Shown here one piece after another: positions 63,856 through 64,000 of a stretch of DNA of 64,000 nucleotides. How positions within the stretch are numbered: the stretch's first letter is position 1; every line of letters starts with the position of its first letter. The position numbers were made by a program, and so were the translations under genes. The DNA is from Escherichia coli (GTDB lineage Bacteria; Pseudomonadota; Gammaproteobacteria; Enterobacterales; Enterobacteriaceae): assembly GCF_003334335.1 (NCBI RefSeq), contig NZ_QOWQ01000030.1; one strand, 5' to 3'. The notes under the pieces are model-generated. The model had not been told where the DNA came from and did not search any database. It worked only from the letters and a program-made list of their open reading frames with translations.

Positions 63856-63987
63856 ACATCATTGACAATCGCCGCCAGTTCCAGGCAAACTTCCCGCTTT
63901 GTCGATTTCCTTCTGAAAAGACGTACGCGTTAAATCCTGCCAACGCACCGTAACCCTGAAACCAGAGAGATGAGACGGGGATACTCC

Positions 63988-64000
63988 CATAAGCGCTAAC
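63988..64000 (+). mobile_element. First 13 bp of an IS186-like terminus, truncated by the window edge
   Basis: cataagcgctaac is the exact inverse of positions 64..76; preceded by ggggatactcc, compatible with the G4-N6-C4 target I recall for IS186. Confidence 0.4.

Follow-up and report, generated by a model that had tools for sequence, protein, structure and literature searches.

IS186 insertion between fabB and yfcJ at the right edge of a 64-kb Escherichia coli sequence

The stretch of Escherichia coli DNA analyzed here, referred to as the window, is 64,000 nt long; it begins inside an IS186 copy next to nupC and ends, shortly after fabB, in 13 nt resembling the terminus of the same element. 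The question raised by this locus was whether these few bases mark a second IS186 copy that is missing from K-12 and, if so, what kind of event placed it there and which gene it touches. IS186, named "IS421 family" in NCBI annotation, is an insertion sequence of the IS4 family; it is ~1.34 kb long and codes for a DDE transposase, InsL. Members of the IS4 family are moved by a DDE transposase through a cut-and-paste mechanism, and the staggered cut leads to a duplication of ~10 bp of the target. The window was found to follow the gene order of K-12 MG1655, to which it is 99.98% identical, but on the opposite strand to the reference; it runs from the IS186 end by nupC (1-76) through mntH, glk, evgAS, emrKY, the dsd and fad genes, and the yfc fimbrial genes to fabB. 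The only large difference was the absence of CPS-53.

The IS186 terminus at the right edge

The 3' end of the window reads ...gagacggggatactcc up to the junction and cataagcgctaac after it. The features of this end are as follows.

62532..63752, + strand: fabB (beta-ketoacyl-ACP synthase I), intact, protein identical to that of K-12
63828..63854, + strand: fabB intrinsic terminator hairpin, AAAAGGGAACC-TGAT-GGTTCCCTTTT+T
63855..63987, + strand: fabB-proximal portion of the fabB-yfcJ intergenic region, which the IS separates from yfcJ; expected to hold any native yfcJ promoter
63978..63987, + strand: left flank of the insertion, GGGATACTCC, predicted to form the left-hand copy of a target-site duplication of 10 bp in GG-N6-CC geometry
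63988..64000, + strand: first 13 nt of the IS186 IRL terminal inverted repeat (the transposase-start end), equal to CATAAGCGCTAAC

When reverse complemented, the terminal 13 nt match the IS186 terminus at positions 64 to 76 without a mismatch, in agreement with the original prediction that the two edges carry the same terminus. The window holds just two copies of CATAAGCGCTAAC, one on the - strand (64-76) and the other on the + strand (63988-64000); the chance expectation is ~0.12 matches per window with one mismatch tolerated, and two matches were obtained in 0 of 100 shuffles. In ~170 kb of related loci, it was located solely at the ends of annotated IS186/IS421 elements. The break itself was mapped with window 63401-64000 as the query. 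All 5,426 complete RefSeq E. coli genomes aligned to 63401-63987. Among the matches listed, alignments ended exactly at query base 587, which is window position 63987 and directly precedes the 13-mer, and only strain ETEC4073 reached 64000, with a 1-nt gap.

Sequence beyond the window was obtained from two public contigs, which were reached by an exact-sequence look-up of the MntH (D379A) and YfcP (G137R) proteins of the window. MntH led to the 64,064-nt draft contig QOWQ01000030.1 (GCA_003334335.1), the first 12,884 nt of which equal the window at the same coordinates; the window thus very probably corresponds to positions 1 to 64,000 of this contig. The sibling contig JASBDI010000031.1 (GCA_030130245.1; 64,074 nt), to which YfcP led, is identical to window 43547-64000 (20,454 nt) and extends 86 nt past its last base, all of which match the IRL end of IS186 at 100%; past the flank, it reads CATAAGCGCTAACTTAAGGGTTGTGGTATTACGCCTGATATGATTTAACGTGCCGATGAATTACTCTCACGATAACTGGTCAGCAATTCTGGCCCATAT. 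In total, 99 nt of the element were recovered (13 of them in the window), and these are identical to the IRL end of the K-12 copies IS186A, IS186B, and IS186C (isoform IS421; insL), including the 23-bp inverted repeat and the insL start codon. Of the terminal inverted repeat CATAAGCGCTAACTTAAGGGTTG (23 nt), 13 nt lie in the window and all 23 in the GCA_030130245.1 contig, where the first 15 codons of insL are also visible (ATGAATTACTCTCAC..., MNYSHDNWSAILAHI; full-length InsL has 370 aa). The opposite, IRR end of IS186 reads ...GGTTCAACCCTTAAGTTAGCGCTTATG. What follows position 64000 in the sibling contig is thus IS186 and not ordinary chromosomal DNA without IS homology, and the claim of a second IS186 terminus downstream of fabB was borne out over 99 nt. 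The exact junction GGGGATACTCCCATAAGCGCTAAC had no match in the GTDB species-representative genomes or the JGI metagenomes.

Could there be no IS here at all, the 13-mer having arisen by chance, as the remnant of a lone inverted repeat, or through a chimeric contig end made by the assembler? The window includes only 13 nt of the element, and a repeat, such as the one in which the contig ends, is a place where assemblies can be misjoined. This explanation is nevertheless very improbable, as chance matches are expected at ~0.1 per window even with one mismatch tolerated, and two separate public assemblies give the junction, one of them extending 99 nt into IS186. In addition, an independent Logan contig reproduced the left (nupC) junction. 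The right edge of the window is therefore confirmed as an IS186 insertion of an entirely known kind, a routine strain-specific polymorphism. That both edges of the window lie in IS termini is probably technical rather than biological, since short-read contigs break at repeats. The contig carries ~76 to 77 nt of IS186 at either end, consistent with an assembler having collapsed the multicopy repeat so that the contig broke one k-mer inside it.

The fabB-yfcJ site and its target sequence

By comparison with K-12, the insertion point lies 235 nt past the fabB stop codon, so that the fabB terminator precedes it, and the ATG of yfcJ follows after 30 nt. The empty site of MG1655 reads GACGGGGATACTCC^TCGCCTTGCG, where the caret marks the insertion point, and K-12 continues as GACGGGGATACTCC^TCGCCTTGCGCTGCATTCTGGAGTAATGCATG, the final ATG being the yfcJ start codon. 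K-12 and the other genomes listed are collinear with the window to 63987 and then proceed through TCGCCTTGCG into yfcJ, leaving the site uninterrupted; the same empty site was present on two contigs that share the MntH D379A and YfcP G137R alleles of the window. The expectation that K-12 has no IS186 here was correct, as the MG1655 site is intact. The suggestion that the element had entered the gene next to fabB, or lay just downstream of it, did not hold: yfcJ is uninterrupted, and the IS lies 30 nt upstream of its start. The fabB terminator has an 11-bp stem (z = -5.0 in an RNA fold of 63753-63870), and fabB would be unaffected because the IS lies beyond this terminator. Between fabB and its terminator, there is also a REP-like hairpin (63755-63838), and when 63000-64000 was scanned against Rfam, 63762-63838 gave a subthreshold match to naRNA4 on the - strand (31.9 bits versus a gathering score of 59.5).

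The published IS186 target is GGGG(N6/N7)CCCC, used in either orientation and with one or two mismatches at 7 of 59 sites (PMC5009759; the target is also given in PMC6925257). The empty fabB-yfcJ site contains no perfect match to this consensus. The best registers are GGGG-ATACT-CCTC (N5, one mismatch) and, at N6 spacing with two mismatches each, CGGG-GATACT-CCTC and GGGG-ATACTC-CTCG. A possible G4-N6-C4 target had been proposed for this position; a true G4-N6-C4 is not present, but a degenerate form of the motif, with two mismatches at N6, is. Since the published data allow mismatched targets, the consensus is a preference and not a defining feature.

To find how often the site is occupied, synthetic junctions, each made of 150 nt of IS joined to 150 nt of flanking sequence, were built for either orientation of the element and searched against the 5,426 complete genomes. 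A single genome, that of the porcine strain ETEC4073 (NZ_CP122660.1), carries IS186 at the fabB-yfcJ site, and the orientation and exact junction of the window were found in none of the 5,426, in keeping with the prediction that the insertion is strain specific. The ETEC4073 copy is complete (1,339 bp), does not differ from the K-12 copy in sequence, and is flanked by the 10-bp duplication GGATACTCCT. It resembles the copy in the window in its intergenic site, in the element itself, and, to within 1 bp, in its distance from yfcJ. The differences are that its junction lies 1 bp to the right and that insL has the opposite orientation, with the IRR end adjoining fabB and insL pointing away from yfcJ.

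The two junctions correspond to the two N6 registers. Under the GG-N6-CC geometry with a 10-bp stagger, CGGG-GATACT-CCTC yields the junction of the window and GGGG-ATACTC-CTCG that of ETEC4073, this geometry being the one seen at the two reference copies, the duplications of which are GGAATTATCC (K-12 nupC) and GGATACTCCT. From this correspondence, the duplication in the window lineage is predicted to be GGGATACTCC.

The opposite orientation together with the 1-bp offset shows that the ETEC4073 and window insertions are independent. The contrary explanation, that both descend from one event and that the offset is a sequencing or assembly error, could draw on the close relatedness of ETEC4073 to the window (99.978% identity over 64 kb), on its lack of CPS-53, on the shared orientation of its nupC IS186, and on the indel errors of its assembly, which includes a frameshifted 1,338-bp IS186. 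However, it is refuted by orientation, since IRR lies beside fabB in ETEC4073 and IRL in the window lineage, and we regard its probability as negligible. The query in the orientation of the window found no complete genome, the two sequences are 11 SNPs apart over 64 kb, which is consistent with independence, and closer relatives are without the IS. The closest complete genomes have at least two base differences in 25 kb, as judged from bit scores. The site is thus occupied in two known lineages, and the window lineage is represented by at least two public draft assemblies.

The contigs sharing the MntH D379A and YfcP G137R alleles were considered as close relatives with an empty site and were rejected, being 98.1 to 99.9% identical to the window and hence more distant than K-12; they were left out of the dating of the insertions. 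In the literature, nothing was found on yfcJ together with IS186, nor on the two assembly accessions.

The motif alone does not explain two insertions within 1 bp of each other, because ~185 N6 sites with two mismatches, of the same quality as the occupied site, are present in the 64-kb window. A perfect G4-N6-C4 site is found just once in the window (54929-54942, GGGGCATTCGCCCC), and it is unoccupied; the hairpin in which it sits, GGCAGGGGCATTCGCCCCTGCC, separates yfcO from smrB, two convergent genes.

The IS186 pair and the nature of the event

The second copy has to be considered together with the one at the left edge, for which the features are as follows.

1..76, + strand: last 76 nt of IS186 (IRR, the transposase C-terminal end), pdeA/nupC copy, with insL on the + strand
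77..86, + strand: target-site duplication copy of the nupC IS186, GGAATTATCC
77..63987, no strand assigned: nupC...fabB segment, 63,911 bp, bracketed by two directly repeated IS186 copies

The target at nupC is canonical, GGGG-AATTAT-CCCC, and forms the stem-loop of the pdeA/nupC terminator; two allele-sharing contigs have a diverged but related empty site there. The nupC IS186 of K-12 MG1655 shares its junction and its 10-bp duplication with that of the window but lies in the opposite orientation. The inverted orientation relative to K-12 was considered as a sign of rearrangement and rejected, as both orientations are common: the orientation of the window occurs at the same junction in 465 of the 5,426 complete genomes and that of K-12 in 472, the K-12-orientation examples listed being mostly K-12 laboratory derivatives. 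In ETEC4073, the nupC IS186 is 1,338 bp long and annotated as frameshifted (8679-10016 of its extracted locus), reflecting either a genuine 1-bp deletion or an assembly indel error.

With regard to its sequence and flank, the fabB-side copy is like the known K-12 elements: in addition to the identity over 99 nt described above, its flank ends in CC beside the IS, a feature shared with the nupC copy of K-12. It differs from IS186A, IS186B, and IS186C in its mismatched target and in its location, where neither K-12 nor 5,425 of the 5,426 complete genomes have an IS186. With IRR adjoining nupC and IRL adjoining fabB, both insL genes are on the + strand and the two copies are direct repeats.

This arrangement bears on whether the junction arose by simple insertion or was made by the transposase as the end point of a rearrangement involving IS186, such as deletion, inversion, or tandem duplication of the nupC-fabB segment. 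In a rearrangement, the IS would not be followed by yfcJ, or the right-edge IS would be the very copy that precedes nupC. The direct orientation fabB-IRL...IRR-nupC would let a single IS join the two contig ends into a tandem array or a circle, and the recovered sequence covers the fabB-side junction only, with 99 nt of the element. IS-associated recombination is also not rare, accounting for 98 of 857 (~11%) IS events in mutation-accumulation lines (PMC5009759), but simple insertions accounted for 758 of the 857 in the same data set, making them roughly eight times commoner (PMC5009759). Moreover, ETEC4073 shows a simple insertion with target duplication at this very site, and the contig enters the IS by a full k-mer instead of ending at 63987, which would argue against a coexisting wild-type fabB-yfcJ junction. 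A rearrangement is on these grounds an improbable, though not negligible, origin of the junction.

Simple insertion of IS186 upstream of yfcJ in one E. coli lineage is, in contrast, well supported and very likely. Established here are the fabB-side junction, a 99-nt identity to IS186, the direction in which the element lies, a vacant site in essentially all other E. coli, and the independent ETEC4073 insertion. A point against it is the target, which matches the consensus poorly in a window that offers ~185 equal N6 sites and a perfect one left unoccupied.

Proposed mechanism and possible consequences

For a simple insertion, we propose that in an ancestor of an ST10-like, K-12-related E. coli lineage, InsL inserted an IS186 copy by cut-and-paste into the G/C-flanked fabB-yfcJ site, 30 nt upstream of the yfcJ ATG, with insL pointing towards yfcJ. 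The element would be complete and flanked by a duplication of ~10 bp (predicted to be GGGATACTCC), after which yfcJ would follow. In its location, such an insertion resembles those of IS186 at the lon promoter in E. coli B and in spontaneous lon::IS186 mutants, which are likewise intergenic, precede a gene by a short distance, use a G/C-flanked target, and recur independently in either orientation (PMC3045373; PMC6307192). The difference is that lon is a hot spot with demonstrated Lon deficiency, whereas the fabB-yfcJ site is a weak match, occupied in two lineages, with no known phenotype.

YfcJ is an MFS transporter reported to be needed for active bo3 quinol oxidase (PMC10588857), and it is listed with other transporters that had an apparent effect on the metabolism of arabinose and xylose (PMC3429515). 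It is implicated in bo3 oxidase activity and arabinose efflux. The insertion would part yfcJ from any promoter located more than 30 nt upstream, so that its expression might fall or come to rely on read-through from insL. Such a regulatory effect is conjecture because no promoter-like sequence was seen for yfcJ or directed outward from IS186 in the native or reconstructed locus: a sigma-70 consensus scan gave none in the intergenic region of K-12, at the ETEC4073 locus, or in the reconstructed locus in the orientation of the window. The insertion may nonetheless change the expression of this poorly understood transporter. It is conceivable, if rather doubtful, that two insertions within 1 bp at a poor site reflect selection for altered yfcJ expression or an unrecognized targeting determinant of IS186, and that the nupC-fabB block is amplifiable.

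The direct IS186 pair, 63.9 kb apart, would be a substrate for homologous recombination leading to tandem duplication or amplification, and it could drive duplication of a 64-kb block with fabB and the fad, evg/emrKY, and dsd genes; recombinational deletion would remove fabB. In this respect, the locus is like IS186-flanked plasmid integrants, in which a direct IS186 pair brackets a segment and is the proposed route to tandem duplication (PMC6925257). It differs from them in that the segment is 63.9 kb long and contains fabB, so that deletion is unlikely to be tolerated, and in that here the arrangement alone is known. As an insertion of an already known kind, its importance goes little beyond bookkeeping, and it serves as a lineage marker. 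It is also a case in which a mobile-element boundary was correctly called from 13 bases.

A few further differences from K-12 were observed in the window. At the tRNA-Arg gene argW (37753-37768), the CPS-53 prophage of K-12 (KpLE1; torI...intS, ~10.2 kb) is missing, with a 16-bp overlap at the junction; ETEC4073 is also without CPS-53 there, and VG48B2 has a different, P22-like prophage. The fimbrial usher gene yfcU (49136-51781) is intact, the internal stop codon of K-12 (codon 579) being Tyr in the window, and it also carries P366L. Four nonsynonymous differences from K-12 were found, namely MntH D379A (2781), YfdF L293P (40248), YfcU P366L (50232), and YfcP G137R (53955). MntH D379A and YfcP G137R also occur in more distant E. 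coli (98.1 to 99.9% identity) and are not private markers.
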